From Camelus dromedarius (Eukaryota), in NCBI RefSeq assembly GCF_036321535.1, contig NC_087436.1, forward strand, positions 69,876,001-69,940,000: DNA of 64,000 nucleotides. The letters are read 5' to 3'. The number at the start of each line of letters is the position of its first letter. Position 1 is the stretch's first letter. Shown here in pieces: positions 1-36,807 of this stretch. The notes under the pieces are model-generated. The model was given only the letters and a program-made list of their open reading frames with translations, searched no databases and was not told where the DNA came from. The translations under genes and the position numbers were made by a program.

Positions 1-768
1 AGAAATCATCCATAGTAATTGGCAGGAAGACAGATTCACAAATTCAAATTACAGGGTACAGGGAAATATGATGGTAGAACTTGTGAATGATCTCTTTTGA
101 TTTCATCTATTTATTTTTTCATGAAATAAGGGGCAAGGTTATCAACTAAGAGTGAGGATTAGCAGGAAATGTTAGAAATTTGAAGGGGAAGCTATAATAA
201 GAAGATTCAGAAAGTGAACGGATTAAAGAACCTTATTATAATTACCATTCAGCATTAAGAGACACCTATAAGTGGTCATCGACTATGGATTTCTCTGAGT
301 GCAAGAACAAAGTGGATGGAGAGTTAGATTTACTCCAAATTGATGTTTTTCCAAGCAAGTACAATAACGCAAGAGCAGAATAGCAGAATGAGGTAATTAA
401 TGGTGTATGAAAAGGAGGGACTATAGAAATTGTTCATGGACTGTGAGTTGGATGAAAAGGACATTAAGGACTCACAAGGAGTAAGGAAGAGTTAAAAGTT
501 GGTAGGATCAGTGGACTGGAGGTGTTTACAAGGTTAAAGAATTGCTAGAATCAGGGTAGCAGAGGGCTTTGTTTCTAATAGGGATTGTTAGCAAAGGTAT
601 TTTATTTATAGCCATGAAAATGAGTGGCTAAAACAGAACAAGGGATAAGCATATAGGAAAAAAGAGTCAAGGAACTGAGAGAACAAAACTTTCAAAGCGT
701 CTTCTATGTGGACAGGAAATCACCAACAGTTGAAAAAGGAGTGGTTTAGTGAACCAGGAGATAAAATC

Positions 769-1328
769 TGTGATGGTTATTTTTATGTGTCAATTTGACT
801 GAGCCAAGGAGTGCCCAGATTAAACATTATTTCTGAGTGTGTCTGTGATGCTGTTTCTGGATGAGATTAGCATTTAAATTGGTGAACTCAGTAAAGTAGA
901 TCACGCTCCCCAATGTGGGTATGCATCATCCAGTCCTCTTGGATCTGAATAGAAGAAAAAAAGTGGAGGAAGAATGAATTTGCCCCCTTTTGCTTCCTTT
1001 CTTCCTTCCTGTTTTATTTGGGACGTCTATTTTCTCCTGCTTTTGGACAAGGATATACACCATTAGCTACCCTTGTTCTCAGGCCTTGAACTGGACTTGA
1101 TTGCTCTGGGTCTCCAAATTGCAGACAATTCATCCTGAGACTTCTCAGCCTCCATAATCATCTGAACCAATTTGTCATAATAAATCTCTTCATTCATATA
1201 TACACATGTGTGTAGGTTCCATATATATATATATATATATGGATACATGTACATATACATATACATACACATACATATACATATATATGTAACCTATTGC
1301 TTCTGTTTCTCTGAAGAGCTCTAACACA
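769..1328 (+). mobile_element. MLT2-like (ERVL) solo LTR with internal TA/CA microsatellite
   Basis: Begins TGTGATGGTTATTTTTATGTGTCAATTTGACTGAGCC and ends ...TTCTGTTTCTCTGAAGAGCTCTAACACA, matching MLT2 termini as I recall them; TG...CA ends; near-matching 5-bp flanks AAATC/AAATG. Confidence 0.75.
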
Positions 1329-4204
1329 AAATGTTTACAAGATTTGGGGGAGTTATTTAAGTGTCACTAAATGACTAGAGGCACTGGACATGTAGTGGAA
1401 GGTATATAATGACACCAGAGTCCAAGTTGGTGAAAGTTTATAGAGAGACACAAAGTGATCTGAAGCATCAGTAAAGAACAAGGGAGATATCTAACCCATC
1501 TCCAGGTTCAAAGGTGTAAGAGCCATAGAAAAGAGGCAAGATTTTAAACAGTTACAGGTAAAACCATGTCTTCAAGTTGGAGAAGCTTGATTTTAGATAT
1601 TTTGGATGTCATGAGGAATAAAGTGCATAATAAGATTAGTCTTCTTCATGGTCTCAAGGAAATAGTGGTGTTGAGTTTGGGGCTAGGAAGGGGTTAAAGT
1701 CTTGGGGCCTTGGATTCACTCTTATATATTGAGACATGAAGGTTCAAAAAGGGCCAGTCTTACCCCAGGTGGATGAGATTCTACTTTGAGCCCAGTGAGT
1801 ATAGTGACATGAAAAAGGGAGGATTTAACTCGCCTCGGAGTTCCCAGGGCTTCCTCTAGATCTCTGCTGGCCTTACTCTTGCTCCAGGCTATGCATGCTA
1901 TGGAGAAGCATGGGGATCAGACATTCTCTCTTTTTAACACAATCAACTCTTAGAATTCTCATTTCTGAGCCATTGTTCATTCTTTTTCTTACACCTAAAA
2001 AAATCTCACCTAAACTAACTCCAGTCTCAAAACTTACCCAAACTTCAAAGCCAAGAAACTTTCCAAAAAAAAGTTTCCCCCCTGCTCAACCACCAAAATA
2101 ATAGTCTTTTGACTATTGCATAACTCATTGGGCAGATTTTACCTATCGTGCTCCCCATATGTCACTCAGGGCCGGCTGAACCTTAAAGTTATCAGGCACC
2201 CAATTACTACTTGACTAGACATATGAATAAGTAAATGGCAGTGAGCATCATCATCATGTACATTCCTTTCACCCTAGAAGAGATTATAAATTATCTCCTG
2301 CTTTCCACAAGTGCCTTTCACAGACACCCAGTAAGTAGGTGTTGAAATGATAAGTATTCTCATCCATTAACCATATGGTACTAATAAGTTTAAAGATTCA
2401 ATAAAACAAAACAAGAATTCTGTGAAAATCAATTAGAGCTATGCCTATTCACTTTTGCCATGTAAGAATCACAACTACATATGGACACCAAAAAACCATT
2501 TTTCTATCTGTAGCACCTCCTTCAATATGATTATTTTAGTGTATGGGAAAACACTGGTGTTAGCCACATACATATTGTAGAGCACAATTTCCAGAAATAC
2601 TAAGTAAATTCATAACCGGAAATCATATGGAAAAATAAATGAATTTTTCACCTTGACAAGGCAGGGTGAGGGGGGCAATGAATTAGGACATTAGAACTTC
2701 TTGGACTGCAAAAAACAAAATTTCAAAGATGAAGTTTCTTAACAGACAAAGACTTGATTTCATTGTCCCAGGTTCAATTCTGGAAACCATGAGGTGGAAA
2801 TCTTAGCTATCTTAGATCTTATAAAGATGAATTAGTGCCAGCCAGGGATTCTAAGTCTGCTGGCGGCTTACTTCAAACGAAAAGATCTGCAAACATAATC
2901 TCTAACTGAATGAGCATTTCATCCTTACAAATGTATTATTGCACTAGCTTTCCAGCAATTACTTTAGTTCACTTAAAGAGCAATATTTAATATCATGGGA
3001 ATGGTATTTCCAAACTACTAAAGTGATAAGATTATAATCGTTCAACACATAACACGTTGCTTTTGATCTGAAGGTAATTGTTATGTACATAGATGCTTAG
3101 TGCATCAACACTCTGCCTGATTAAAAGAACAATCCAGTGAGTCTTGGACATAACTTTGGGGATTCAGTATTTGTTCCAATGCTTAATAAAAGTATTAAGA
3201 CGATCCAGAGGATAGGGAAAATTGAAGAAGACTGAAGGAAAAAAAAATGATGTTAGACTTATTCGCCTTTCTACCTAGTTAGCCCTGTATGTCACAACAT
3301 TAGGGCTACCTGATATGAAAGAAGTATGTGGGGAAAAAAAAAAAAAGATATAATTACCATTAAGCAAATTTTTAGGTATCCTCAAATGAAAAGAGAAAGT
3401 AAGCCAATTAAATTCAGAATGAGTGTCCATGTTGTCTGATAAAATTACTGTTAACACCACGCCTTGTATAGCATAAACCGAAAGTCAACAACAATTTAAT
3501 TTCAAAATTTTTATGGTGGTTTTAAAATATATATCAATGAATCACCTCAGCAAGTGACACAATAGCAATAATATAGTTTGGTGGATTTCAGGTAAATAGA
3601 CAATTAGCTTCAGAAACTGAAGTTAAAAGCCATATCGGCCAGTGTTGAGTTTACCAAGGGAAGTAGGTATTTAAGAGATCAGCATAACTTCTGTACAAAT
3701 CATACAGCAAAGAAAAACAGACTGTCATAAGCATGTTATTTTTTAAAATTTTTTCTTCTATGTTATAAACATATTTTTCACACACTCAAACAAACACAAT
3801 TCTGTCCTTAGGAAAACCACAGCCTCCTAAGGTGAATCCCGACTTAAGTTACTAAATGGTAAAACATGTTAAACGCTATCACAGTGAATTCAAATTTTGC
3901 TGTGTAAGCAGAGAAAGGAACAACTGAGAAAAACAAGAGAATAGGGAAGAAGCAGCACTAGAAGCTAGGGAGTTAATTTTTTTAAAGGCTTTTATATTTA
4001 AAATATGAGCCTTGCCCTGTTCAATCTGAAGATAAGCTAACAGGTTCACTCTGTGCCTGAGAGATGCATGCACACAGCTAACAGATTTCACCTCCTTTCT
4101 TTTGTTTGGGGATTAGCTCAGAAGGGATCCCTTATATGTGAAACTTTTTCTCTCCCCCACTGAAATAAAGGAAGAAGAACGAGGAGCGTGCGTTTCTTTC
4201 CTAG

Positions 4205-4312
4205 ATTCAAACCTTCTCATCATGGATTTTATCTTCGTGCATTGCTGAACCAGGCTGATTTGGTCAAGAGTTGTAGCTTGAAGGTGGCTTAAAGGAAAGC
4301 TTCATTTGCAAG
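4205..4312 (+). other. Candidate 5' non-coding exon of the giant SCPP-like gene
   Basis: Pyrimidine tract plus AG (gtttctttcctag) before 4205 and donor AAG|gtaaat after 4312; lies just upstream of the signal-peptide exon. Splice motifs are the only support. Confidence 0.3.
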
Positions 4313-4889
4313 GTAAATGATTGAATAAATTAGACGGTTCAGAGCCATTCTTTCTTCAAATACCTACTCTTTCTGATAACCCATTGGCATGAGGAATCTA
4401 CTTAGATATGTATATTTAAACTCTGGCTAAATACACATTCAGTAAATTAACTTTTGTCTAAATAGTCCTCAAAAATGCAACAAATAGATTACGTACCTAT
4501 TATTAACATGAGAATAAGAATGAATTTTTACGATGGAGGCCTCACTGAAGTACTCTGTCCAAATGTATCTGCTAGTTAGATTGTTTACTCCTTGATTGTC
4601 TCTAAGCTTTAAAGAATAGTTAAAACTCTTCCTATTCTCGTTAATTGGTAAAAATGAGATTGACTGCAGCAAACAGAGTAGCCTAATCCACTTATTATCA
4701 CTTCTAATAATGCACTAGAATTTCTTAAGTGCTGTCTTTGTCTTTTTAATCAAGTGAGCATGTAAGTTAAGGTCAACTATTTAAGTACAATAAAGATTCC
4801 TGATTTTTTAAATTGTCATTTAAATTGTCAATGAGTTAATGTAACATGGGACAATCTTGCATCTTAGTCGCCTGGAAGAACAAGACAAA

Positions 4890-4943
4890 ATGAAGACCCT
4901 AGTCCTGACACTGACCATCTTGAATTTTGTGGCTTACTGCCCG
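4890..4943 (+). CDS. Signal-peptide exon of the giant gene (MKTLVLTLTILNFVAYCP)
   Basis: aaaATG start, M-K-hydrophobic core, 18 codons, strong phase-0 donor CCG|gtgagt. Same 54-nt length as the SMR3-like signal exon at 49993-50046. Confidence 0.8.
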
Positions 4944-5487
4944 GTGAGTCTCAGTATTTTGAATAACAGTATATTTATGGAACTGAAAAATTATATGGAG
5001 GAAAAAAAATGTATTTAGAGCTTCAGCTTATGTTTAATGCAAGAAATAACATTTTGCTAAACAAAACATCATTGTATTTTTAATATTCTATTTTCTATTT
5101 ATAAATTTCCTTCTTTTAAAATTAATCATATACATATGAAGTAAAGATAACAGAAGTTATAATGCATGATAGCATAAGATTTGAAGGGGCTTCTCCTTGC
5201 TTTTTTATACTATAAGAGATTCCTTACTGAAAGTTTGCTATCGGACACCTGGATTTATATTTACAGAAGGTACATAACCCTAACATATTAACTGTTCCTT
5301 TTCACATTGATATTGTGTATTTCTAACTTGATTGACTTAACAACCAATGGATAAAGAGAAAGCAGAGACCTTCAGAATGATGCTTTATTTGATCAATTTA
5401 ACGATGTGACAAGTGATTTCAGGTTTTTAGTAAAACATAATCTACAAGGTGAACCTCACAAAAAATATTGTACTTCTTTCCCTTTAG

Positions 5488-5790
5488 TATAATGGGAGTC
5501 AGGAAATAAACAATCAGACAAATCAACATTTGTCTGCCAATCTGCCTTTGTCCTCACCAGTCAGCCACTCAGCAAGTCAATTCTCATCCCTTCTAAGAAC
5601 AAAAGAAAATTCTGCACCTACAGACAATTCAAAGAGCTACTCTGAGTCTACTGACAGAGGAACAAAGCTTTCTGGATCTCTTTCGAAGAGAAACCACTCA
5701 GAGACGCTTCAAGCTAGGATATATAACCTTTCCCCATTTGGGGGTGATGCACCAAGTAACTCTTCAACCAACCAACCAGACTTCAGCTAG
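5488..5790 (+). CDS. Start of the giant exon (YNGSQEINNQTNQHLSANLP...), open for 100 codons to TAG
   Basis: Acceptor tacttctttccctttag| at 5487/5488, in frame with the listed ORF 5530-5790 (offset 42 nt). The spliced product would be 118 aa. Confidence 0.65.
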   Translation, partial: YNGSQEINNQTNQHLSANLPLSSPVSHSASQFSSLLRTKENSAPTDNSKSYSESTDRGTKLSGSLSKRNHSETLQARIYNLSPFGGDAPSNSSTNQPDFS

Positions 5791-6062
5791 CTTTGCTTAT
5801 ACTGAGGACACAGTAGACAACTCTATTCCAGCAGAGGCTCCAAACAGCAATGTGTCACCTTCATACGCTGCTATGCAGGATGCTTCTGTGGTCAGTATCA
5901 CAATTTCCAGATTTTCACCCAACTCCAGAATAACACAGAGCAGGATGACTGTTTCTGGGGAAAACAGCATCTCAGCACCTGTATCCATGACTACCCATTA
6001 GTTTAAACCTGATTCCACTGTTACTTCCTACTTTCAGACAGACTCCAAAACAATTCAGAGTC

Positions 6063-8132
6063 TTGAACCTTTCTTCCCATTCACTGGAAGATCTAAACAA
6101 GTTTGCCCCTAATCTTGCCACGTACATCCAAAATGCTGAGAATAAGTTCAGTGCCTCTGCAGATGACGGTACCATTGTCATGTCAAATGCAAACAACTTT
6201 CACATGGAAGAAGCAGGACCAGACAGTACACCCTTTATTGGTACCACATCCCTTATGAAGGAAGGCAATACAGCAAAAATTGATGCCACAGACATTCTAG
6301 AAGACTACACAACTCTGCTTGATGTTCCTGACATGGAGGACAAAAACATAATTATAATCGATACTAAATACCTAGGAAGATTTGGCAAAACTGTGAGCAA
6401 TGCTCCTGAAATTTCACAGAAAGACAATTCTATTGTAATTGATGCCACAAACATGAAGGATCATGGTAGAACTATAGTTGATGTTCAAACATCTAGCATT
6501 TTATCTGCAAATAGTATCAATGACTTTGAATCTATTCCTATTCCGAGTACTTACAACAAAGCCAATACCAAATCTATCATGACTGGCACTGACACTGATG
6601 AAGCTATTTCCAATATCAAACCCATTAATACTACAAAGTCTTTTCCTAATTATAGAATATATAAGAAAATCAATAATGTTATTAGTAATTCCAATGATAT
6701 CAAAATAATATTAGATGTACCTAAAAATACTATGCATGTGGGGGACATAATTATTTCCAAAACAAATGACATCACTTCTACAAAGCATTATGCTAACCCT
6801 AACTCCATAAAGCCAATGACTAACACCAACACGAACTTTAAAATAACTTGGCCTTTAAAGGAAGGTACAATAATAGAGGGCAAACACACTGTTCAAATGG
6901 AAAACATCACAACACATAACAATAACAATATTGCTAAAACACCTGGATCCAAATTAAATGGTTCAGTAATTAAGTACCATTCTAATATTCCTGCCAATGT
7001 ACACCTTAAAACTGTTAGAAACTATTTTAATTTTGTGAATACTGATCAAATTGAGAATTTCAGTCCTGTGGTCCAAGAAACTGTGAACATGGATCAAGAC
7101 GATGGAGTTGTAGAGGAAGTCATCTTCATTCGTCCAGATACTCCCACAACAGAAATTAGAAGGAAAGGTTACTCTCTTAACCCTGATGCAAATTATATCC
7201 AAGCAGCAGGAAGCAAAATCATCCCCTCTTCTTACATTGCCAATATGTTCAATCCCCTATTCAAAGATAAAACAAAGCCTTTTACAATGGACAGCACAAA
7301 CCTCATTAACAACAGAGGTGACCACAGAACTCCCACCACAATTACAACAAATGATGCCAAAGCCAAAACAGATGTTGAAAGAGCTGCTGTGTTTAAAACA
7401 GCCAATTTCCAGAGTAATATCATCCCTATAGTTTCTGTCACTCACCCTGGAACTGTTGGGTCTGTTGATTTTAGTGAAGACAGTGTAGCTGACATGACCT
7501 CAGATTCAAAGGTCACTATCACTCTTTCAGATAAATCTACTGACTCTGTGGATGAAATCATTAATCTTTCTCATAACAACAAGCATGCCGATGATGCTGC
7601 AGGTCCCAACCCTGAAACAGACTTTCTTATGTACAAAGGATACACTTGTCTGTCAGTAGCAGAGTCATCCACCCTAATGCCCAGTGCTCAAAATAATCAA
7701 GCTCAAAACTCTCTGCTAATTAAAGGTGACTCCTTGACTGAAGTTTGGGTATCAGATCCTGTGGCTAAAAATCCTCATGTCAATGATACCATGATACAAA
7801 AATGGAAAATCAATAAAGTATCAGATCCTTTGAAAATTCCACTGGAGTCTACTTCTCTTACAGCTGATTTCACCTCTCCCAACGATCAATACAATGCCAC
7901 TGCCAATGCAGGTAAGGGGACCACAAATAGGACTGACAGCTCTGAACTGATGATTAACAAGGCCACCATTCCAGAAGGAAGGCCCACCATAGCCATTACC
8001 CCACTGCCTGCAAAGACAGCTGTTATTCTTACACCAAGAAAAAGATTTGGAAGTTTCATAGACAAAGAAATGGCTAATGAAGAAGAATCAACCCCCTCCT
8101 CAGAAGTAAAGTCTGCAGGAAGATGCAGATAA
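6063..8132 (+). pseudogene. Giant exon segment, 689-codon ORF
   Basis: Long S/T/N/D-rich ORF that overlaps the next ORF by a frameshift at about 8120. Confidence 0.75.
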
Positions 8133-9490
8133 AAGAACATCTTCCACCTGCACATAATTTCAAGTACTTTGAATCAGGAGAGAGTGGCTTTAAAAGGAAT
8201 GGATTTGTGTCTGTTGACGCCACAAAGTCTCTTTCCCAATTAACTAGCAGTGCACCTACTGCTGAAATAACAATAAGTGACACTGACCTCTCCACTGCTG
8301 GGGAAGAAAACGATGTTCTACATGGTGTCACTAAACCTGAAAATGACAAAATATATTTTCAGACATTGGCCGCCAAAACAATAGCTAATGGCTTGGGTGA
8401 AAGTGTAGCTGTGAAACAGAATGTGGAAGGAGCAGAAGGCACTGAATTCCTTCCACCTAGCAGTTCTATCCCCCAAACTGGGAGAATGGATAATCCCATA
8501 CTCCATAACTTATACTATAATGTAATCACTGATAATCCACTTACTATCACCAAAGAGAACTCAAATGTTGCTCAGAACATCATAAAGCATAAACCATCAC
8601 TCTCCACAGTGGACAATGCAGATTTTATTGATTACAGAGATGGCCATCAGACCCCTGCTGCCATCAGTGCAAGCAATGCCAAGAGACTGGCCAATAAAGG
8701 TAAAATGGCTGGGTCTCAAACAACGAATATCCCTCTTAGCATTACTCCTGTATCTGGTGATAGTTCCTATGTGAATAAAAACACCAAAGTTACAACAGAT
8801 TTGGCTTCAATAGCTGCCACCTCACCAATAAAGAGAGGCATTCTTGCCATGAATGAAGTTAATACTTTTAACAATAAACCTAATAAACTAGGAGATGACC
8901 TAACCATTTCCAGAGAAGATCTCAATGCGTCTAGAGATGACGGCACTTTGTTAATGGCTGATTCTTCTACCTTGAAGTCTGTTGCTCCTCTCAATCAGCC
9001 TCAAGCAACAAACCTTGCAAAAGAGATCTCTTCAGCAGATATTATAATACCAAAAACTTCTCATAAGTCTATGCCAGCAGCTTTGACTGTCACCACTGCT
9101 GCTCAAGGAGGTGCTGACACCATGTTTTATGTCCCAAGATATGAATCTAAAAATTCTTTCAAGGAAGATACAACATTGAACTACAAAGCAGATCCCCAAG
9201 CAGACATAGGCATTACGGCAGAGGACAAAGATATACTTAAAGAAGAAAATTCAGAGACCATGTTTATGTTATACCTACTGCAAATTATAATGTTCCTAAA
9301 GGCAACAGCTTGGCAGATAAACATTATTCTCTTAACTCTGATGTATATAGCTCCACCAGTTTCAAAGGGTCAACCAAAACCACAGCTGACCAACTTGAAT
9401 TTGAGAATCCTGCATCAACCTATACGACTGAAGTCTCAAAACCTCTACTTGGAAAATTTACTTCTGAGTCTCAAGGAAAAGTGTTTGTGA
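8123..9490 (+). pseudogene. Giant exon segment, 455-codon ORF (true frame switches at about 9250)
   Basis: S/T-rich until about 9250; the tail after that is out of frame, while the alternative frame reads DHVYVIPTANYNVPKGNSLADK into the next ORF. Confidence 0.7.
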
Positions 9491-12400
9491 GAAACAGTAA
9501 TACTCATTTTGAAAATGATGAATTCTTTGATGATGATATTCTTTATCCAATGATGGAAGAAAATGTCCCAAAAGGATATGACTTTTCCCCTGAAAGAAGA
9601 TCTACTTTTACAACACCAAATTTTATGATTCCAATGAAAGATAAGATAAATCCTGCTCTGGGCCACACTGTCGTACTAGGTAAAGGAATTTCCAGAAAAA
9701 AATTTGCATTCTATACTAATGAACAAACAGATCTAGGAACAGAAAAAGACCAAATTGCTACAGGTAGCGTAACCAATTCTTATACCCTCATTATACCTAT
9801 GACCTTCTCCACTCCTGTCTCCTCTAAAAACATAAATGTGGAAAATGATTACCATATATCTGAAACGGGTATTCCTTTATCACTGGGATATGCAAATACG
9901 TTGGGAGATGATTCCTTTATTCTTTGGCCTGGAACTACTCCAGCAAAGGAAAATAATCTAAATGCTATGGAGTGGATCATCATCGAACCTGATAAAAGTG
10001 ATTCTGAATATACTTCAAGTAAGCATGCCTTTGAACTATGGAAGGAAAAAAATCATCTTATTAAAAAACCTATTCAATTTACATGGGGACCAAATGGATT
10101 TGTATCTCAAACACCATCCTCTAAAGATGAGGCCTCAAAGAGTCTTCTGTACAGAATAATTCACCCTGAGTTTGAAACTAAAGACAAATATCAAAACACC
10201 ATTCTCAAAGAAGAAAATATGGACTCTAATATTGTTGACACTTCTTTCAAAGATGACTCCAAAATCTTCAACACTCAGCATCTGAAAACCATGGCACCCT
10301 CCTTAACAGATACAGCTGAGACTGTTCCCCCTGAGCTTCTAAAAAGATCATCTGCGGAAAAAGGCACTCTATATGAAGATGATGACATCGTCATTCTCCC
10401 TGAAGATTCTGGTTTGGGAAATAAAAAAATCAAGTGTCTCTTTTTACCACACACAGAAACAATTGTTACCATGGGAGAGAGCAGAACATTTGGCACCATC
10501 CCCACTGATTATGCTGTGACCACCACATCCATAAAAAGTCAAGGCCATTTCTACAAAAAAGGCATTTCATCCAATGTTGGTAACACATCTGCTCCAGAAT
10601 TGGCAGACACCACCACATCAAAAAACTCAAAAGTCAATGAAAATAAAATGGACTTAGCTGAAGTGGAACCTTCAGAAGATTACATTAACCACTTGGCTCA
10701 TGATATTGCCTCCCAACCTGAGAATATCTCTTCTGGTGGTGATGTTACTAAGGGTATAATCAAAACAGCCTCGGTAGCTTCTCTTAGTCCTATTAATACC
10801 ACCAAAAAGACAACAAATGCCACCACCATTTCACTTAATGTCGTCTCTGCCTTTGACTCTAAGGAAAGCGATAAAAATGATGACTCCACCATGCCTGAGG
10901 CAGATGGTGTTCTGTCCATAAAATTAAAATCTCTATTAATTCCCAATCAGAAAAGACCTAGAACTGCAGTTGTTCTTAGTGAAGACGATTCTTTATCAAA
11001 TAAATCTGTGACAGTAGAGGCATCAGAGCTGCGGGGTGAACACTCTACTATCAGGGACCAAAACTGGAAAATCACCAAGGTGCAAGGTGACCCTCAGCTC
11101 TTCTCCATGGTCTCCTCTGTTCCTCTGGAAAATCCTATTACTTTTTCAGAGAATTCTATAAATATACTCACTGACATGCCTACCACTGAAAATGGGAGCA
11201 TTAATGATAATGCTGACACCATAGCCTTTTCACCTAACATAGCCCTTCAACCCATAATCCCAGAAAAGGAGCAGATAAATAAAACTTCTGACTATGCTGT
11301 GAGTCATCATGTAAATAAAGCAGTTATCAGTCCATCTGCAAAAGAAATCACTATCTCAGGAAGTGAGGTTAATGAATTGTTCAGTAAAGCTAAGGCTATT
11401 GTAGAAGATAAGTCCTGTATTTCTGAAGCCAAAATTCCAGTGAACTTAAGAGAGGTAAATTCAGCAAACATTAATCCTTTTATTCTTAAAATTGATGTTA
11501 CTCCTGCTGAACAGAAGGTACCTGGAACTTTTAAGGAAACATTTTATCCTGATTCCACAATAAGCACAACAAAGCTGACAAAGGCCAAGGCTAGGGGCTC
11601 ATCTTCTCTTGATAATGGTAACTTAGAGAGGTCTGTCACCAACTCTTACAGCAAGTTATATCATCTACCCCAGAAACCAACTCTTCTTCTTACTGATTTT
11701 GTTGCTAATGTTATTAAAATCAATAATTCTGAACTTGATCCAGCGCTTATTACTGGAGAGAGCAACATAAAAATGACCGATGAGTCTATAATATCTAAAG
11801 ATGTAACTGTTCTACCTAAAAAAGAAATCATTTCATCTGACAATATTATATTTACTTATGACAAAAGGAACATTATAAATGGAAAAAGATACATAGATTC
11901 TGCAGAAAAAGATAATGTAACTCCATATGAAGTAACTCCTCTTAAAAAAGACTTTTCAGCAGAATCAGATGTGGTTTTACTGGCAGAGGAAAACAATCCA
12001 AATAATATGAATCTAATGACCATTGAGCTTGACAACAGTACTCTTAAATATTCATCAGAGGAAAATTCCTTTTATGTTGGAGAAGGAAAGAGCCCCACAA
12101 CAAAAACACCTACCTTTGTTCAAAGGCTCCATAGATTTGCATCTCATGTTCCCTTCCACACACCTGTCACTGAAAGTCTACTGAATGAAAATCCTGTAGA
12201 ACTCAAAACTAAAGAAAACCACCAAACACTGATCTCCAGAAAAGGAAACTCTGATTCTGATAATGTTGGTTCCTTTCTCAAAGATTATACCACCAAGTTC
12301 AGAAGTAAGTTACCTAGAGCCACAACTCACTCCCTAACCAATGGAAACAGAAAAAATTTCCCCAAGTTTCTAGATGATTTATCTCCAGCAAGCAGCACCC

Positions 12401-12600
12401 TAAGTGAAAATGGGATTATTATCAATCTTCCAGAAGGCAAAAGTGTTGAGCATATTAATGCTCCAGGCCCAAAATCAGTGCAAACTGTGGGAGAAAGCAG
12501 GATGTTCCCAGATGTAGTCACTGATCTCACCAGCAGCACAAATCCAATAATAAGCAAAGATCAGCTCTACAGGAGATACAGCTCATTCACTACTCTTTAA
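9310..12600 (+). pseudogene. Giant exon segment, 1096-codon ORF (repeat units 1-2)
   Basis: Long ORF ending at TAA 12598-12600; the same frame continues as 12619-12849. Confidence 0.75.
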
Positions 12601-12964
12601 GACCAGAGGGTACCCACTATGTCACCCACGTCAGAATACAATCAAGACAAAACTTTCAAGGAAGAGAGTTACCATTCACAGGATGCCACTGCTCCTTTAG
12701 TTACATTCAGTGTCAACCTTGATAACGAACTTCCTTTGGTTGATGAAGATTCTGTGAATAAAGAAAACAGGGCTTCAGTTTCTTTTTTACCTATGAAATC
12801 AACTCACAATATGGCTGATACCATTGCTCTTTCCCGAGAACAGTTATGAATGGGGTGATCCTATGCGACCTAGTGAAAATGTTAGGGCTAGAGAATCCCC
12901 ATTTCCACTAACGACTGAAAATATCATTCTCACACCCCAAGTCTTAACTTAGGATTCTGTTCTA

Positions 12965-15601
12965 ATGAGTGACAATTCCTTGACTGACTCCTCAAAGTTA
13001 GTATCATTAGTACCAGAGACAATGACTGAATACCTTGATCTTATTCATGGAACTGATATTTCAGAAAATCAGGACATTAAAATTCAAACAGACCTTCAGC
13101 CCCACTCCTTGGACTCAATAATTCCCTCTATTCATTCAATAATTTTTACCAGGAAATCCACAAATGATGACGCTGATTCACCATCCATTGTGGACAGAGA
13201 AATTGTTAACAATTCTAAAATTAAAACAGATGTTCAACCTCTGGATACAACAATGAAAGTCCTTTCACCTAGGCAAATAAGCCTTTTCCCTTCTGAAATA
13301 AGGAAAACAGCCAAGCTCTCTGCTGAGGAAGACACCATTCAATGTAAGTCATATTATAAATGCAACAGTTTTCATTCCAACTTCGGAGAAAACACTTCCC
13401 TCAACCCTGAGCTCAGTTCTCTCTCCAAGAGCAATAATAACAAGGAGGAGGAACTCATTGTTGAAGCAGGCAATTTTGTTTCAGGAGATTCAAGGACATT
13501 AAAAGACAATTCTTTTGTTGGTAAATTTAATATTTCTGCTATACCTCAAGCTCCTCCTAGTTTAAAAAGAATACTTTTGACTGATTCAACCATGTCTCTA
13601 TAAAAGACTTCAGAGTCTAAGGTTAAAAACTCTGCTCTTCCCGGTGAAGATACAGGTTCTACAGGTTTTCTTCATAATGTTCTCACTGGATCCTCTGAGC
13701 TGCTGTGGAAATCAACTCTTTCTCCTTTTGGGTCTACAAATTCTGTGAGTTCATCTAAATATTCTGAACCTGATCCAGTTGTCAAAATGAAAAAAGATCT
13801 TGCAACAAAGACTAATAATATTCCATTTGAGGAAAGAAAGTATCTGTCTCACAAAAACATCATTGCACCTAGTACCAATATTTCAACAAAAGACATGTTG
13901 AACACTATTTTTAATAAAAGATTTAGACAAAGAAATTTTGGGAAAGATATAAACACTGAATATGAAATAGTTCTTATTGCAGAAAACACTTCAGACATTA
14001 CTTTAAATGGTGAAAATATTCCAAATAACAAACATGTAATAAACATTGTGAATGATGACACAGCTCTTAAGTATGTTACAAATGAATACATCCTTCAACC
14101 ACAGGAAAAGAAAAACAATTCCACTATTAAAAAAACTGCTCTCATGTATGGCCCCAAAACGGTTGGGTCCCATCCATTCTACTCCAGTGGTGATGCATAT
14201 AAACATTTATTTCAAGGCGCCCCAACAGAAATCAAAACTAAAGAAATGCTGCAAAATTTGATATCTAGAGAAGAATATATCAGTTCTGACCTTGACGCTA
14301 CTGCTCTCAAAAGTTGCACTGACAATTTGAATTCTAAGGCTCCCAGATCCATGACTTACCCACCAACTCACACAAGTGAGAACTTTCACAAGTTTCTAGA
14401 TAAAACAACTCTGAAAAGGGATACTCTAGGGGAAGATAACACCATCATTATTTTTCCTGAAGACAAAAGGATGGACTATATCCTTGTTCCAGACGTAGGA
14501 ACAACAGTAACCATGGTTGAGGGAAGGATGTTCCAAGATGAACCCATTGCTCCCATGGTGATCACCTCTCCATTAAAAACTAAGAATCAATTCTACAGTA
14601 AAATCACTTCATCTGCTACTTATAACAATGATGCTCAAGGTAAAGCAGTATACATTTTATTACCCAGAGTGGACAATGTTAAAGGCAAAACTAATATGGC
14701 AGAGATGCCACACTCATGGGACAGCATTATCCCTCTGGCTGATTTCAGTGGCATCCCTGATGGTCAACTTTCTTTTATCAGTGAAGACACTGAAAATTTA
14801 AACAACAAAGTTTCAATACCTTCCTCACCTATGAACACAGGCCACACGGTGGGTGATACCAATACTCTTTCCACTGAGAGTAGTTATGACAGAGGTGATT
14901 CCATGCTTCCAGAAGGTAATATTAGGTTTAGAGGATTCCTAGCTCCACAACTCCCAGAAAAGCCCATTTTCATTGCCTCAGCTGCAAATCTTGAAAACTC
15001 TGACCCAGTGACAGATAACTCCTTGGCTAATTCTTCAACTGCATGGTCAAATATGTTTGAGACGATGATTGAATTCCTTAATACTACTAAGGATGGTGAT
15101 GATCCCATTACAAATAAAACTGATCTCAAGCCTTACTCCATCTCAGCTAGAACTCCCATTGGTCCCATTACTTTTGCAGACAATCCCACAAATAATGAGT
15201 TTGATTCACTGCCCTCGATAAGCAGAGAAACTACTGACATTTCTAAAATTAAGACAGATAAAATATATTTTGAACCTCACAGAACAATCATGAAAGCCTT
15301 TTCTCCTATAAAAGTTTCTCAATATAAAGTCTATGGAGAAGAAAAAATAGCTAATTTTTCTGATCAAGAAGATCCAACTACTAAATTTAATTTAAGTCAC
15401 ATTACAAACGCAACTGCTCTCAGTCCAGCTGGGGAGAAAACATTTTCCTTAGCAAATGAGTCTAATACTCTGTCCAAGAATGACAACAATGTGGAAGAGG
15501 AAGTCAATATTTCTGAAGCAGGCAATTCTTTTCCAAAAGATGCAAATATATTGAAAGAGAGTTCTTTCCCTGTTAAATTTGATGCTTGCTACTTCTACTA
15601 A
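12965..15601 (+). pseudogene. Giant exon segment (units 2-3): ORFs 12965-13603 and 13745-15601 share one frame separated by a single TAA
   Basis: Read-through after TAA 13601-13603 gives KTSESKVKNSALPGEDTG...LLWKSTLSP...SSSKYSEPDP, homologous to LPLWKSTPLS...SPSKYYKLDP in the next unit. Confidence 0.75.
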
Positions 15602-18600
15602 ATTTCAAGCACACTCCAATTTAAAAGGAATCTCTTCATTTGGTTCCATATTAACACTTCCAGAAGCATCTGGGTCTAATGATCAAAGCTCTTCTCCTGA
15701 GGTCACTACTGGAGAAGGAACCATTACAAACACTCCTACTGGAACATATAGTCTACCATTATGGAAATCAACCCCTCTTTCTTCTGATTTCACAGCATTC
15801 ACGAGTCCGTCTAAGTATTACAAACTTGATCCAGCTGTCAAAATGAAAAAAGACATCATAACAAAGACTAATACTAATACTTTACCTGGAGAAAGAAATA
15901 CTCCATCTGTCAAAGCCATCATTACCCCAACTACAATTGTTTCATCAAAAGGCATGAAAAACACAATTGATAACAATAAATTTGAAGAAAAGACTTTTAT
16001 AGAGAAAGATACACCCATAGAAGTAGTTCCTTTTACAGAAAGCATTTCAGAAGAGGCACATGACACCCTTTTGGCAGTTCAAAATATTCCAAATAATGAG
16101 GATATAGTAACTATTATACCTGTTGACAGTGCCCTTGAATATGCTGCAGATAACTATATCATTCAACTAGTGAAGGAAGGAAATGGTCTCCTTACAGGAA
16201 AGCCCACACTTACCAATGACTCCAATGTACCTGAGTCTCATGAACCCTATGCCAGCGCTGCAGTCTCCGAACATTTATCCCAAGGATCTCTGATTGATAT
16301 CAAAGCTAACAAAAACCACCAAAAGTTCCCCAAAGAAGAAATTCCTAATTCTGATAATGATCCTACTGTTGTCAAAAGTTCTATTGCCAATTTTAATACT
16401 AAGGCTCCCAGGTCCATGATTTATTCTCTAACTGATTCAAGCTGGACTTTTTCACCTATGCTTCTAGATGAAACAATTATAGAAAATAGTCCTTCAATCA
16501 GTGATAACACCATCATCATTCTCCCTAAAGGCAAAATAATGGAGTATCCGTGTGTTCCAGACCCAGAACTAGTGACAAGAATAGGAGAGAGCAGAGTATT
16601 CACAACTAATTCTATTGATCCTGCAGTGATCACCAATCCTGTAGACTATAAAGACCAGTTCAACAGAAAAGGTGTCTCATCTGTTTTGTATAATAGTGCT
16701 GCATTGGAGGGAGCAAAAACCACCATATCATTCAGATTTGATGCAAATAAACATAAATCAAACTTGGCAGATATGCCCCATTCACAGAACAATATTTCTC
16801 TGGCTGAATTCAGTGTCGTTCCTGATGATGATCTCCCATTCATCAATAAAAATACTGATGAAGCAAACAACAGAGCTTCAATCTATTCCTCAACTACGAA
16901 TAAGGAGGCCAGCACTGTGGCAGACTCCATTGTTCTTTCCACTGAAGGTACTTACAGAGGAGGTGATTCTCTGTTACCTGGAGAAGGTAATGTTAAGTCT
17001 AGAAGATTCTCATCTCTACTAATATCTGCCATGTTTATTCCTAATTCCTTAAATGAAAATACTGAAACTTCTGGACAAATGACAGATAACTCCTTGTCTG
17101 AATCTGTAACACCTAGGTTAGAAATGTTAGAGAGAGAAACTGAATATGCTGATGCCATTAATGAAGGGGATATTCCAGAGAGGCAGGGCATAGAAATGCC
17201 AGCTCACATTCATTCCTATCCATTGGCCTGGAATGGTCTTCTAACTGAACCACCTATTTTTTCAGATATGTCCACAGACGGTGAAATTGATTCACTTTTC
17301 TCTCTGAATAGAGATATTCCTGAAAATTATAAAACTAAGGCTGACAAAAAATTTTCCAAGTCTCAAAGGGCAATGATGAAAGCCTTTTCCGCCCTAAAAG
17401 ACTCTCAAAACAGTGTCCGTGAGAGAAGGGAAATAGCTAATCTCTTTGATCAAGAAAATCCAGCTGCTGAATCTGAATTAAGTCACTTTATAAATGCAAC
17501 AGCTCTCATCCCAGCTGTGGGGAAACTCCTTTCATCAGCAACTGAGCCCAATCCTATCTCCAAGAGCAACAACAATGTGGATAATTCTTCCCTTGTTAAC
17601 GTCTACACTACTTCCTTCAAAGTTCAAACACCTCCTAATTTTAAAAAAATCTTTTTAGCCGTTTCTCTTCCAGAAGCATCTAGGCCTGCCTCTCATGATA
17701 AAGTTACTAACACAGAAGGATCCATCACAAACACTCCAGCTGAATTAGGTGGCCTACAATATGGGTCAACTTTTCCTGCTTCTTTTGCAACATCCCTAGG
17801 AACGTCCAAATATTCTGAACTTGTTCCTGTTCTTACTATGGGAGAAGACACCACAAGAATGACTGATTATAGCATTACACCTGATGAAATAATTTTTCCA
17901 CCTAATAAAGTTATCATTTTGCCTAATACCATTACCTCTGAAAAAGATACAGCCAGTACTTTTAAAGGGAATATATTTAAGAACAAAGAGTTTATAGACA
18001 GAAATTCAGCTGCTGAATATGAAATCATTTATTTAACAGAAGACATTTCAGAAAGGGTCGTTTTAGCTGCAGGCAAAATCACTCCAGCATACGTGGACTA
18101 TATAAAAATTATGCCTAATGATGGTGGTTCTGAGTATGTCCCAGATAAGCATGCCTTTGAATTCGAGGATAAAGCAAAAAATCCCCTTATAAAAACAAGT
18201 ACATTCATATATGCCCCTGAGACACATGCGTCTCATGCACCATATACCACAGTTGCTGCTTTAAACCATCTGTCTAAAGCGGCATCCCCAGAGTTCAAAG
18301 CTAAAGAAAGTTACCAGGCTGTGATCCCTAGACAGGAAAACAAGAACTTTGACACTGTTGTCATTGCTATCAAAGATTCAAATGACAATGTCAATACCAA
18401 CAGACCCACAGCTCATTTCCTAATTGATGCAAGTAAAAGTTTTTCTTCTAGTTTTTCTGACAAAACATCTGTGGGGAAAAGCACTATAAATGGTGATGGT
18501 GATACCATAATTCTCTCTGAAGGCTTTAACTTAGGGAATAAAATAATTGATTATTCCCTTTTTCCAGACACAAAACTGGTAGTTGAGAACAGGACATTCA

Positions 18601-18746
18601 CAACTGGTACTAATAACACTTTAAAAAACAGTGATCATTTCTTCAGGAAAAACATATCCCCTACCATTTTTAAGACAGTTACACCCAGGAGAGTAGACAC
18701 TACCACATCCAGAGTATCTGATTTTACTGAAGGTGAACAGGTATAG
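15579..18746 (+). pseudogene. Giant exon segment, 1055-codon ORF (units 4-5)
   Basis: Long ORF with clear similarity to the preceding ORFs; frameshift at about 18735 into 18749-18952. Confidence 0.75.
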
Positions 18747-21700
18747 CTGTGGTATCTGATTCAAGGTTTAATAAGTTTCTTTTAGCTCAGCATTCCAGTA
18801 GTGACATCTCCAGTGTGAATGAAAACACAAAAGGTACAATCAACACAGCTCTTACTTTCTTTTATCCTTTGAAAAAGATATCCACCAATATGCCAAATGC
18901 TCCTGCTATCTCTACTAGTGACCAAAAAAAAAAAAAAAATTGGCCATTATAGATTTCCATCATCAGAGAGTGTCATGTCTCTAAGACTTACATCTGAGGA
19001 ATTACTGAAACTCTCATCCTAACTTCTAATGCTCCTACTATAGAAACTGCAGCCCTCAAGACTTGTAAGTTGTAAATTTATATTACCCACAGTGCTAATA
19101 TCAGAGGCATTAGACCCTGCGTCTGCAGACTCGGCTTACTTTAATGAAGGCACTATCTCAGAAGGGCAAAATATGAAAAGTCAAATGGTCCAGAAGGTTC
19201 TCCCCTTGGTCTACATTGTTCTCCAAGCTGATTCCACTGGTTCTATAGATGACATGGCAGATGTCACACCTCAGACATCTGCTACTATTGTTGCCAAGGA
19301 CAAAATTTTTTATATTGATGAGTTTGGTGATCAAAATTCAGAATTCAAAGGAGTAACCACCACCAAGTTTTTTATGCCTTTGCCTTAATGACTGTAGTAA
19401 ACCAAATTTCTGTTATGTGAAGGAAATAACCAAAGCCACTGCAATGAAAGACATGGCTACAGAATTTGAAGTAAATCACCTTATAGATGTAAATATAATA
19501 AAAGAAAATGACCCAAGTATCCAGATGGGATCTAAAAGATGTTGACATAAAGCCTTATCTTGTGAATAAAGATGTCATTACTGATAATAAATCAGTCAAT
19601 AAGGATTATGACAGAGCTCCTGTAGCAGCCTACTCAAGCTTTCACATACCCAAGGCTTCCCTCTCAGGTGGATCTGTTCCTCAGGGAACCCATTTCATGG
19701 CTGGGAACTCAAACTTGCTCACAGAAGTAATTACCATTATTCCTACTGGTGAAAAATCTACATCTAACATGGAGACCGTTTCCTTGGTAAAAGGAAATTC
19801 TTAGTTGAAATTTAATATAGCCAATCTCAGAGCAACAAGACACTGAATTTCAAACTTCAGAAAGCACAAATGCTACATCTGAATCCATTGTTGAAATAGA
19901 AAAAAATTACCTAAATTAGGAGCAATTTCTATTGCACTACAGGCTAACAAGAGGTTGAAGTAGATACTTTCTTTAGGACTGATATCCCTTGGCCACAGAT
20001 AGAAACAATTACCCCAAAGGACACCGTTGAAGAACCTGCAAACAACAAAGCAAATATGAGAGTCACAACTGCTCCTAATGGAAATATCATCTTCCTTGAA
20101 AACAAAGAAACAGTAACCCCACAGGCCAACACATCCTTCAATTACAATTTCCTTACTCAAGCACCTAACACTCCAATCAATGGAGGGGAAGAGAACAAAA
20201 TGTGGACATTGACATAATCAAATCTCTAAATGCAATTGCTCCTCTCACTTCCTTTACTGTTTCTGAAGGTGAGAATTCTTTTGTGAATGAAGATATTGAA
20301 TCTGAAACTTCTTCAGTAACTGCATTTTAATAATGATTATAACTTCAATTAAGGTTAAGAACTCTATTTTCTCCAATAAATTTATAAAATCTGAAGATAT
20401 TTCTAAAATGGGAATTCTGGAAGACATAAAATAGGAGACATCATTTGTCTCAGTTGATTCTTTTAAACTTGCACATGACACTTCTAATAAATCTCAAGAT
20501 ATTCTCAATATAAAGAAAGTCTGAATGGTAGACACCACAATGACATCAGCATTTTAAAGTCTATATGTGAGGATTTTTCCTAGTCATGTATTCCTAAAAA
20601 TCATAAATGTGCCAAATGACTTTGCTGAGGGCTTACTGCAAAATCTCCCCCTCTTGTTGGCAGCTTTCACTTTTCATGAAAGAAAGAGAGAGAAAAAGGG
20701 AGAAAGAAAGAAAGCAAGATTTGTGTCACGGACTTAAAAAACTTGCCACCTAAAAGGAGGCATAATTACCAAGCCAAACATCTCAAAATTTAAAGCAAAT
20801 AAAAAATAAAAATGTTACCCAACCAAACTTGCTACAGCTGCCAAAATAAGGAAGATATATACCCTGACCTGTCGATAGATAATAAATTGATACTTCTCTG
20901 AGAAAAGATAAATGTTCACATTAGTGTGATAGACACTAAAACAATGGGGGAAAACACTCTTCATACAAAATGAAATTTATTTATACAATCTGATTCCCTG
21001 TCTTTAAGTCAGATAAATCTTTGATAGTAATGGTCTATTGGTCAAGTAAGAGTATACTATATTCCCTACAGCAGATGACTCCAGTTCCATCCTCAAGACT
21101 GCTAAAATCCAGCAGTCCTACCAGGATTTTCTCCATATGCTTCCTGCACTTTGATGGATGACACACACTCTCACTCTGGTGCCCTTTTTTGAGGTCAATA
21201 GTGCAAAAAACACATATAATCATAAAGTTATTCTCCATAGGAGAGAAAAGACTTATTATGCTACTACAATCAATGTGATTCTACCTCACAGCCATATTAG
21301 AAGTAGAGTTGATGTGACCACAGAAGTAATCTTTGAAATTAATTTGACAATTATTATCTATGAAGGTGACATCATCATTTTACCTGACATTTCTAACTGG
21401 GGATTCAGTGCTCATAAAAATGAATATTTTGCTCCTTGTTTTCACTCTATTCAACATTACAAATAACAAGTATTCCAAGATAACTTCTAGCGGTTATACA
21501 CCTAACTTCCATATTTCTCCCTTTTCATGCACACACACAAAAAAATCCCCCCCTAAAAATACCAAGTCTTCTGTTTATAGCATGCTTTATCCTGAATTAA
21601 GCTTCATAAACACCAAATGACGAGACAGAAAAAAGCAGAGGTTAAAAACTTCCCATTAAGATATCCAACACAAAGAAATTGCATTACCCTGTGATTTTCT

Positions 21701-23099: not shown

Positions 23100-24287
<1,188 letters not shown>

Positions 24288-35762: not shown

Positions 35763-36807
35763 ATATTTCCATGGTGAAGCAAGTTCGGAAAATACTACAT
35801 ATCCCTTGGATAGGCTAAATCTTCATTGGCATATTACATTAACAATTCCAATAAGCTTTCTAGTAAAGAAATGTCCTTTACTTTACCAAAATGTTTTCCA
35901 TAGTCGTTTGACTACCAAAATCTTTTCAATGCAATGCCTACTATGGAACACATTTTGGGAAAATTTGTAGTAAAACTATTAGGCCTTGAGAATAGCAGAA
36001 ATATAGTTTACTTGATACACCAAAGATCATAATTCTGTCTACTTGGTAGGCACACCAATCAAATTACTTATGGAATGAAGTTAGAATATTTACACAAATT
36101 TAAGTGACAACATAGATACATATTGAAACCTGATTTCAAGCTAATTTATGCATCTAATCTGCATAAAAAAATTTTTTTTTGTATTCTCTTAAGTCTAGTG
36201 AAAGTTCTGAAGAGCATTTTAAACCATTTAAGCAAACACGTCTTTATGAGTCAAGACAGCGTTCTGCAAAATTTGGATAAGCTTCTGCAGATCCACATGG
36301 TTACCATGTCGTCAAGAATCCCCCATAGGCCATTATCCCTGCCATCCCCTTTTTCCCCACCGCCCACATGGTCCATCACCACACAGACCTACTTCACCAC
36401 CTGAGAATGTTGTAAACCCCAATTCTCAAGCACCACCAGCCAATTCCAGTGCTCCTCCATCTGCACTACCACTGCTGCTGCCATTGCTTCTGCTGCCTCC
36501 ACCAGTGAAACTACAAGCATTGCATCCAGCACCATGGCTCCCAGCACCCTCCAACCTGAGGCCACCACCAATGCCCAGCAGCATTCACCACAGCTGCCAA
36601 TCAGCAACAACCGCTTCCATAAATTCTACAACTTCTACGCTTACAAATGCATCAAGTCACAAGAAGACAAAGGCAAAACCAAGATAAACAACACTTTCCA
36701 AAGTATTTTCTAACCAAATGAATGACTTTAAGATGTGTCTAAGACCAGGTATTTTTTTGCCACATCAAAAAGAAAGATAAACAGATAGCTTCTAAATCTG
36801 CCATATG

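Follow-up and report, generated by a model that had tools for sequence, protein, structure and literature searches.

By the SCPP family criteria attributed to Kawasaki and Weiss, the signal-peptide exon of a member is reportedly closed by a phase-0 intron, with a non-coding exon 1 upstream, and a Ser-x-Glu kinase motif is said to stand where the mature protein starts. The P/Q-rich SCPP genes SMR3A/B, OPRPN and MUC7 encode the signal peptide in a separate exon that a phase-0 intron closes, have a single main coding exon and give a secreted oral product. Secreted mucins of the MUC7 type are large, S/T-rich and Cys-poor. A further member of the SCPP family is the mouse gene 2310003L06Rik, described as tongue-specific and as encoding a secreted, disordered protein (Ponting, 2017, BMC Biol 15:71, PMC5558704). 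The section on this gene in the same paper reports a protein length that is very variable across species (3.7-fold between mouse and dog), repeats within the proteins, and a gene that many therians keep intact and that has become a pseudogene in Catarrhini. An excerpt of the mouse saliva proteome has an entry for protein 2310003L06Rik (Q9CV82).

The window analysed here comprises 64,000 nucleotides of Camelus dromedarius contig NC_087436.1. Judged from its sequence, positions 4890–19816 on the + strand are most probably (about 0.93) the camel orthologue of mouse 2310003L06Rik, broken into a unitary pseudogene. The original prediction placed an unrecognised gene immediately upstream of CABS1. 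The location is right: a CABS1 coding exon lies at 23106–24287 on the + strand (start at 23106 or 23124; Pfam PF15367, E 5.2e-185) and begins 3.3 kb downstream of the relic on the same strand. It covers the PF15367 profile over positions 1–397 of 397 and has 153 homologues. Of 387 CABS1 residues in the window, 384 are the same in C. dromedarius and in C. bactrianus, 382–383 in C. ferus and 363 in Vicugna, which marks the window as camel DNA. CSN3 did not turn up in the list of ORFs for 1–4900.

The signal-peptide exon (4890–4943, +; MKTLVLTLTILNFVAYCP) holds 18 codons from the ATG, ends in phase 0 and is followed by gtgagt. The intron of 544 bp (4944–5487, +) closes with a pyrimidine tract and ag directly before 5488, where the giant coding exon, now a relic, begins (5488–19816, +; ∼14.3 kb of former coding sequence delimited by tblastn and a frameshift-aware DP alignment to an orthologue). 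The 18-codon signal exon with its phase-0 donor and the acceptor at 5488 were both seen again in the sequence, and the layout of signal exon, phase-0 intron and single giant coding exon supports the reading as an SCPP-locus gene of the secreted type. An ag 22 bases upstream of the ATG may be the acceptor of a non-coding exon 1. Near its start the mature protein would carry S-Q-E, at residues 4–6 of the giant exon, a Ser-x-Glu motif also found at this site in Tupaia, mouse, ibex and pangolin; the canid has N-Q-E and the felid N-E-E. Counted along its full length, the protein shows no enrichment of SxE (30 observed vs 34 expected).

From 5488 to 18746 the stop-to-stop frames on the + strand contain 100, 134, 713, 469, 1119, 216, 665 and 1063 codons, and the chain is prolonged by two more (19044–19388 and 19502–19804, +). 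The predicted chain of long + strand ORFs is therefore present, with a longest member of 1119 codons and not 1096. The relic region has a G+C content of 37%, and the open frames go far beyond chance, since each of the three + frames has 243–315 stops over 4800–19500. Alignment with the intact 4802-aa canid orthologue P0042 is colinear with residues 19–4802 from 5488 to 19816, with 2994 of 4723 aligned codons identical (63%) and no codon indel run longer than 3 codons. Because of this colinearity no splice is needed to join the frames and no element is inserted, just as had been proposed. The gene was originally thought to end at 18952 and to encode ∼4,500 aa; the relic reaches ∼19816 and its read-through amounts to ∼4,766 codons, or ∼4,784 aa with the signal exon included. 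A candidate polyadenylation signal (AATAAA, 20375–20380, +) lies ∼560 bp beyond the relic end, and it is a weak candidate because AATAAA is frequent in the A+T-rich window (166 matches).

A phmmer search against 1.84 billion representatives gave 30 matches at E ≤ 0.001. The top matches were Phyllostomus and Tupaia proteins of 3,928–4,274 aa and a cluster containing “RIKEN cDNA 2310003L06 gene”. In a separate search all 19 long matches are relatives of 2,077–4,802 aa and none contains a Pfam domain, which bears out the expectation that the gene, disrupted here, is intact in other mammals. Gulo gulo, two goats (Capra hircus and Capra ibex) and the bats Glossophaga and Phyllostomus are among their sources; Tupaia, Vulpes lagopus, Prionailurus and Manis supplied further relatives, and intact proteins of 3,900–4,800 aa occur in carnivores, ruminants, bats, pangolin and tree shrew. 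Identity to the window per tblastn HSP is 50–60% for Tupaia, 56–63% for bat and, across the portions that mouse has kept, 37–46% for mouse. The signal exon is identical at 12 of 18 positions in the canid P0042, 14 in Tupaia, 13 in pangolin and 10 in mouse. Signal exon and junction are alike in mouse, Tupaia, pangolin, ibex and canid, and the orthologous proteins read FP followed by YNGSQE or YNGNQE, the same exon junction as in the camel. In Gulo the giant protein and CABS1 share a contig of 227,324 bp; they also share a contig in Tupaia, Vulpes, Glossophaga and C. ferus, and in Cervus they carry the adjacent locus tags G4228_004476 and G4228_004477. The camel copy shares with this orthologue group the position adjoining CABS1, the initiator, signal exon and splice site, and colinear similarity.

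Unlike these relatives, the camel copy has no open frame and is a pseudogene member of the group. The DP alignment gave 14 frame changes, two of which (13349 and 13407) were discounted because they compensate each other and the window frame around them is open. About 12 frameshifts remain, with frame changes near 5770, 6098, 8124, 9245, 12835, 15587, 18735, 18920, 18996, 19055, 19386 and 19528 (+). Alignment to P0042 also revealed four premature in-frame stops on the + strand: a TAG at 5999–6001 (Gln in the orthologue), a TAA at 12598–12600 (Tyr in the Camelus ferus model P0216), a TAG at 12950–12952 and a TAA at 13601–13603. With this many breaks a full-length product is impossible in the camel. 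No damage is seen in the signal exon, at either splice site or in the initial 94 codons of the giant exon.

Errors of the present assembly in a gene that is intact in camels could also produce such a pattern, and frameshifts do exceed stops by about 12 to 4. The C. ferus model likewise differs from the window in places: at ∼9250 one of its residues spans two window bases, as if it had one base more there, and its Tyr at 12598 means that this TAA is not common to both. However, four substitution-type stops cannot be produced by homopolymer indel errors, and no long homopolymers are found at the frameshift sites. Fourteen sequencing runs contain at least 0.97 of 1077 sampled words of 4850–14800; they include runs from four studies not flagged as possible assembly source, which share 0.97–1.00 of the words, whereas ten false breaks would cost ∼3% of them; a share shown as 1.00 could still conceal one indel. 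The independent C. ferus gene model, too, has to hop frame, around 8124 among other places, and after 12835 it ends at the same stop (12846). Assembly error is accordingly highly improbable: the stops, the word shares and the C. ferus model indicate that the breaks are real. At least two frameshifts appear to be common to the camel copy and C. ferus, as far as a predicted protein can tell. Decay of the orthologue would then have started before the split from C. ferus and would still be in progress.

The relic might keep a reduced function, as a transcribed non-coding RNA or as a short secreted peptide in which ∼100 residues follow the signal peptide, up to a stop at 5788–5790 past the first frameshift. 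The undamaged 5′ end speaks for this, but at the young age suggested for the camel loss (d about 0.008–0.015) chance alone would be expected to leave it whole, and we regard a retained function as unlikely. Equally doubtful, when its parts are taken jointly, is the scenario in which camels lost a protein of tongue and saliva with 4,800 residues at some time in the past ∼4–15 million years and the 5′ end might still give a secreted peptide or transcript. Among the sequencing data, runs that are RNA or were guessed to be RNA share 0.62–0.71 of the sampled words (two RNA-seq runs 0.70–0.71), which DNA carry-over or unspliced RNA could explain and which is therefore no sign of transcription.

The giant protein contains 6.4% P, 2.4% Q and 21.5% S+T, and four orthologues have 5.9–6.7% P and 2.1–3.6% Q. 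The Pro/Gln-rich composition of the P/Q-rich subclass, with which the gene had been compared, is thus missing. Nor does the proposed mucin-like character find support: there is no Pro/Thr/Ser-rich tandem-repeat domain, and NxS/T sequons number 53, fewer than the 77 expected from composition. TRF detected no short tandem repeats in 4800–19900 apart from one trivial 30-bp row. The protein instead has ∼4.5 divergent repeats of 670–700 aa each, which were detected by a chunked search (whole-protein BLAST self-comparison gave the identity match only), are 27–43% identical to one another and correspond to P0042 residues ∼1400–4400. Transferred through the tblastn HSP map, they would occupy approximately 9600–18630 of the window (+). 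AlphaFold2 predicted no fold for one repeat aligned with 16 orthologues (mean pLDDT 28.8, 0 residues ≥70), a low confidence that could also stem from the shallow 17-row alignment. Pfam profiles gave nothing above cut-off on six ORFs. A Gp7_6th match on a window ORF was rejected as chance-level (15.8 bits vs a cut-off of 27).

The intact protein would be secreted, intrinsically disordered, Cys-free and rich in S, T, N, D and K, with 3,900–4,800 residues arranged as a unique N-terminal part of ∼1,400 aa, ∼4.5 old repeats of ∼680 aa and a tail of ∼400 aa. It may act on the tongue surface and in saliva as a coating or decoy that is extended and hydrated and probably carries phosphate groups or glycans. 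This role seems likeliest because literature expression data give the mouse gene as tongue-specific and its product as present in saliva.

That the locus holds a hitherto unrecognised, mucin-like SCPP gene of the P/Q-rich type is hardly credible. Databases do call the orthologues “uncharacterized” or “hypothetical”, or name them wrongly (“Trypsin-6-Like” in Manis), and the clone name is absent from the portions of the SCPP-locus surveys PMC12457735 and PMC10888740 that were available. However, composition and repeats are unlike either class, and the section of PMC5558704 on the orthologous 2310003L06Rik already gives its SCPP membership, length range and pseudogenes. A match to an already characterised gene, which the original prediction had named as counting against it, was therefore found. 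Recent surveys of the locus, in the portions available, and most genome annotations omit or misname the gene, which leads readers of the locus to “rediscover” it repeatedly.

The camel locus is a known gene, real but not new, and nothing in the window is of a new kind; only the camel loss is possibly new. The section on 2310003L06Rik in PMC5558704 names Catarrhini and makes no mention of camels as a loss lineage. Camels would be the second placental lineage that appears to have lost the gene, and their ruminant relatives keep the giant protein. If true, the loss parallels the independent one in catarrhine primates, and if the 5′ end of the relic is still productive, the lineages would form a natural knockout series for the role of a giant disordered oral protein. 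Few single-exon genes of mammals are as large as this one, and an evolutionary study could start from the intact orthologues of 3,900–4,800 aa catalogued here and from the ∼680-aa repeats.

Compared with known systems, the giant gene resembles its neighbour CABS1 in being on the same strand, acidic, S/T-rich, fast evolving (canid–felid identity 73% vs 81% for CABS1) and in having a single coding exon, but CABS1 lacks a signal exon. Homology between the two is unsupported, as phmmer of the window CABS1 against seven giant proteins gave no match at E ≤ 10. With SMR3A/B, OPRPN and MUC7 it shares cluster position, exon layout and a secreted oral product, whereas the giant protein is 10–50 times longer, has no short tandem repeats, contains 6.4% P and 2.4% Q and resembles no Pfam family in sequence. 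Like the secreted mucins it is large, secreted, S/T-rich, Cys-poor and probably glycosylated, but it has no PTS tandem-repeat domain, its S+T+P content is 28% and its repeats are ∼680 aa long and a mere 27–43% alike. Mouse 2310003L06Rik differs in length (1,327 aa vs ∼4,784 aa for the camel read-through, ∼3.6 times) and in being unbroken. It agrees in the locus beside CABS1, the initiator, the signal exon, the FP|YNGSQE phase-0 junction and colinearity, and what PMC5558704 says in its section on the gene about repeats, length variability and lineage-specific pseudogenisation fits the camel copy as well.

The chain of open frames upstream of CABS1 starts from an 18-codon signal exon at 4890–4943 on the + strand, which opens with an ATG. 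Its translation, MKTLVLTLTILNFVAYCP, has a basic N-terminus followed by a hydrophobic core, and its complete final codon is followed by gtgagt. The acceptor of the big exon at 5488 (+ strand) directly follows a pyrimidine tract and ag, and from there slightly overlapping stop-to-stop frames of 100, 134, 713, 469, 1119, 216, 665, and 1063 codons succeed each other on the + strand to 18746. Two further + strand frames (19044–19388 and 19502–19804) extend the series. The DNA of the giant gene has a G+C content of only ~37%. As every + frame contains 243–315 stops over 4800–19500, frames of 700–1100 codons are not due to chance. The stop-to-stop frames and splice signals confirm the chain of long + strand ORFs described in the original prediction, although its longest frame has to be corrected from 1096 to 1119 codons.

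Analysis of the six large ORFs with Pfam gave nothing above the cut-off and one sub-threshold match (15.8 bits, cut-off 27). With phmmer, the 1119-codon ORF had 30 matches at E ≤ 0.001 among 1.84 billion representative proteins, 10 of them at E ≤ 1e-30. Cluster look-up of the top matches returned “uncharacterized protein LOC118499675” from the bat Phyllostomus discolor (3,928 and 3,968 aa), “hypothetical protein TREES_T100019234” from Tupaia chinensis (4,274 aa) and a cluster with “RIKEN cDNA 2310003L06 gene” from Mus (longest member 1,327 aa). A word-indexed search limited to proteins of 1,960–5,000 aa gave 19 matches, all of them relatives (59–65% identity) and none with a Pfam domain. Among these, or in their 90% clusters, are proteins from Gulo gulo (4,090 aa), Capra hircus (4,321 aa), Capra ibex (4,137 aa), Cervus hanglu (2,077 aa), Bos mutus (2,037 aa, partial), Glossophaga mutica (3,948 aa), Vulpes lagopus (4,731 aa), Prionailurus iriomotensis (4,809 aa), and Manis pentadactyla (P0194, KAI5278929.1, 4,003 aa). 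The record name of the last, “Trypsin-6-Like,” is almost certainly an annotation error. Intact copies had been expected in other mammals, and long orthologues are indeed found in carnivores, ruminants, bats and others.

The Tupaia, mouse, ibex, pangolin and canid proteins all begin with MK(I/L)L(V/I)... and have ...F(P/L) directly joined to YNGSQE or YNGNQE, a join that by sequence comparison corresponds to the junction 4943|5488 of the window. The signal exon of the window is identical to theirs at 10–14 of the 18 positions. Three contigs of ~15.5 kb code for the full 4,802-aa canid-type protein, including its signal peptide (P0042, P0191, and P0192), and sister contigs code for the same protein with a start within the big exon and the same C-terminus (P0193; P0039 and its cluster members). 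We infer that the former are spliced transcripts and the latter genomic DNA, and the gene would therefore have just two coding exons. The architecture of a signal exon and one giant coding exon was read correctly in the original prediction.

Tblastn with the Tupaia, bat, mouse and canid-type proteins traced one colinear path that switches frame along the window. Residues 19–4802 of P0042, the intact canid-type protein, were aligned to 5488–19900 by frameshift-aware dynamic programming; the alignment ended at 19816, with identical codons at 2994 of 4723 aligned positions (63%). The relic accordingly reaches ~19816, ~860 bases beyond the end at 18952 first proposed, and its read-through comprises ~4,766 codons plus the signal exon. 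Codon indels between P0042 and the window (61 deleted, 47 inserted) have a longest run of 3, and there is therefore no transposon inside the giant exon, where the original prediction had recognised none.

The raw count in this alignment was 14 frame changes and 5 in-frame stops. The frame changes at 13349 and 13407 were discounted as a compensating pair within an open frame of the window, and the stop at 19802 was not counted as premature, lying 5 codons ahead of the orthologue's own end. This leaves ~12 frameshifts (near 5770, 6098, 8124, 9245, 12835, 15587, 18735, 18920, 18996, 19055, 19386, and 19528) and four premature + strand stops at 5999 (TAG), 12598 (TAA), 12950 (TAG), and 13601 (TAA). 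The giant gene in this genome is a unitary pseudogene.

Regarding assembly errors as a source of the breaks, there are no long homopolymers at the frameshifts, one of which lies within a CCAA repeat, and the premature stops are substitutions, a type not made by indel-like assembly errors. According to the run index, 14 sequencing runs contain 0.97–1.00 of 1077 sampled words of 4850–14800, where ten false breaks would cost ~3% of the words and a share printed as 1.00 may conceal one indel. Of the 7 studies that produced these runs, 4 carry no flag as a possible source of the assembly.

The CABS1 ORF (23106/23124–24287, + strand) matches the full profile of PF15367 (E 5e-185), and its 90% cluster includes Camelus dromedarius, C. 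bactrianus, C. ferus, and Vicugna pacos. Identity to these is 384, 384, 382–383, and 363 of 387 residues, respectively, and only 75% to CABS1 of the next-closest named species, which assigns the window to Camelus or a very close relative. For the giant gene, a C. ferus model (P0216, “hypothetical protein CB1_001109007, partial,” 1,959 aa) shares 98.6–99.1% identity with four window segments: 6039–7931 in frame 3, 8174–9250 in frame 2, and 9253–11616 and 12241–12846 in frame 1. The model shifts frame by leaving out the stretch with the break at 8124 and ends at 12846, where the unshifted frame meets a stop, so the frameshifts near 8124 and 12835 would be common to both sequences. At 12598 it has Tyr where the window has TAA, and at 9250/9253 one of its residues covers two window bases, which suggests that this frameshift is absent from C. 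ferus. From these shared and unshared breaks, decay would predate the split of the two camels and have continued afterward. The model also skips 11617–~12280, where the window has ~640 bases of open frame, because of either a break specific to C. ferus or a gap in the assembly.

A stop arises from 2.3–3.7% of the point changes possible in the read-through frame, so that four or five stops correspond to ~0.008–0.015 substitutions per site since loss of constraint, with which 12 frameshifts in 14.3 kb agree in order of magnitude. At a neutral rate of 1–2e-9 per site per year, this would very roughly, and with wide error, place the loss ~4–15 million years ago.

The composition of P0042 (S 11.4%, T 10.1%, N 8.0%, K 7.4%, I 7.1%, D 6.6%, P 6.4%, Q 2.4%, and one Cys) does not fit the P/Q-rich type originally named. 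Nor is a mucin-like nature borne out by any feature examined, as NxS/T sequons are below expectation (53, where the composition predicts 77) and TRF found no short tandem repeats in the giant-gene DNA. SxE motifs number 30 against 34 expected. Comparison of the protein with itself in chunks gave offsets of 670–700 residues and multiples from ~1400 to ~4400, i.e., ~4.5 old repeats of 27–43% identity. The same pattern is seen in the window's own ORFs, and most of the repeat region is missing from the mouse protein. AlphaFold2 analysis of one repeat unit (13604–15598) with 16 orthologues, a shallow alignment, gave a mean pLDDT of 28.8 and a pTM of 0.14 with no residues at ≥70, which would fit intrinsic disorder. 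Judged by canid–felid (72.9% against 81.0%) and Tupaia–canid identities (53.0% against 65.8%), the giant protein evolves faster than CABS1. Still, a dozen or more species keep ~4,000–4,800 codons open, which in DNA this A+T-rich requires selection against stops.

Unlike the giant gene, the 238-codon + strand frame at 53146–53862 (no Pfam match) is a true mucin-type repeat exon, with a Pro-rich start and then ~10 Thr-rich units of ~14 aa reading ...TTNAIDPTTAETDS...; it probably belongs to a PROL1/MUC-type neighbour gene. A very Pro/Ser/Leu-rich + strand frame of 145 codons at 36250–36687, also without a Pfam match, is, given the usual locus order, probably the principal exon of a salivary gene of the SMR3/PROL type. 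A dinucleotide microsatellite at ~1180–1330 gives YIYIYMYM-type translations in several frames. The 190-codon frame on the − strand at 61723–62295 (no Pfam match at E ≤ 0.01) resembles by eye the C-terminal part of a LINE-1 ORF2.

Among the papers searched, the clone name 2310003L06Rik of the mouse orthologue was found only in two (PMC5558704 and PMC4355469). It is absent from the searched text of two recent SCPP-locus surveys (PMC12457735 and PMC10888740), and the gene table of one of them has CSN3 and then CABS1 with nothing between (PMC12457735). Contrary to the original statement, the gene is not unrecognised, since it was already treated by Ponting (BMC Biol 2017;15:71), who chose it as an example of a “twilight zone” gene (PMC5558704); its loss in the camel may be the sole new point. 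As described there, it is an SCPP family member within a tandem array, restricted to therians and with tongue-specific expression in mouse, and its product is secreted, flexible and disordered (PMC5558704). Conservation is confined to the initiator codon, exon number and splice sites, and mouse–rat divergence is close to the synonymous rate (PMC5558704). A mouse saliva proteome includes “Protein 2310003L06Rik (Fragment),” Q9CV82 (PMC4355469). Our best guess from the mouse data and the composition is that, where the gene is kept, its product would serve on the tongue surface and in saliva as an extended, hydrated protein, either a coating or a decoy, that may be phosphorylated at its N-terminal SxE motif.

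Ponting also noted lineage-specific repeats and indels in 2310003L06Rik (PMC5558704). The protein UPI00064A1663 (P0009, 4,541 aa) consists of a Lys/Pro/Ala-rich part, a Thr-rich mucin part and a giant-gene part, in that order, and looks like a fused gene prediction. Its giant-gene part has ~25 tandem copies of a ~100-aa unit absent from the other orthologues; this is a repeat expansion specific to its lineage, such as he mentioned.
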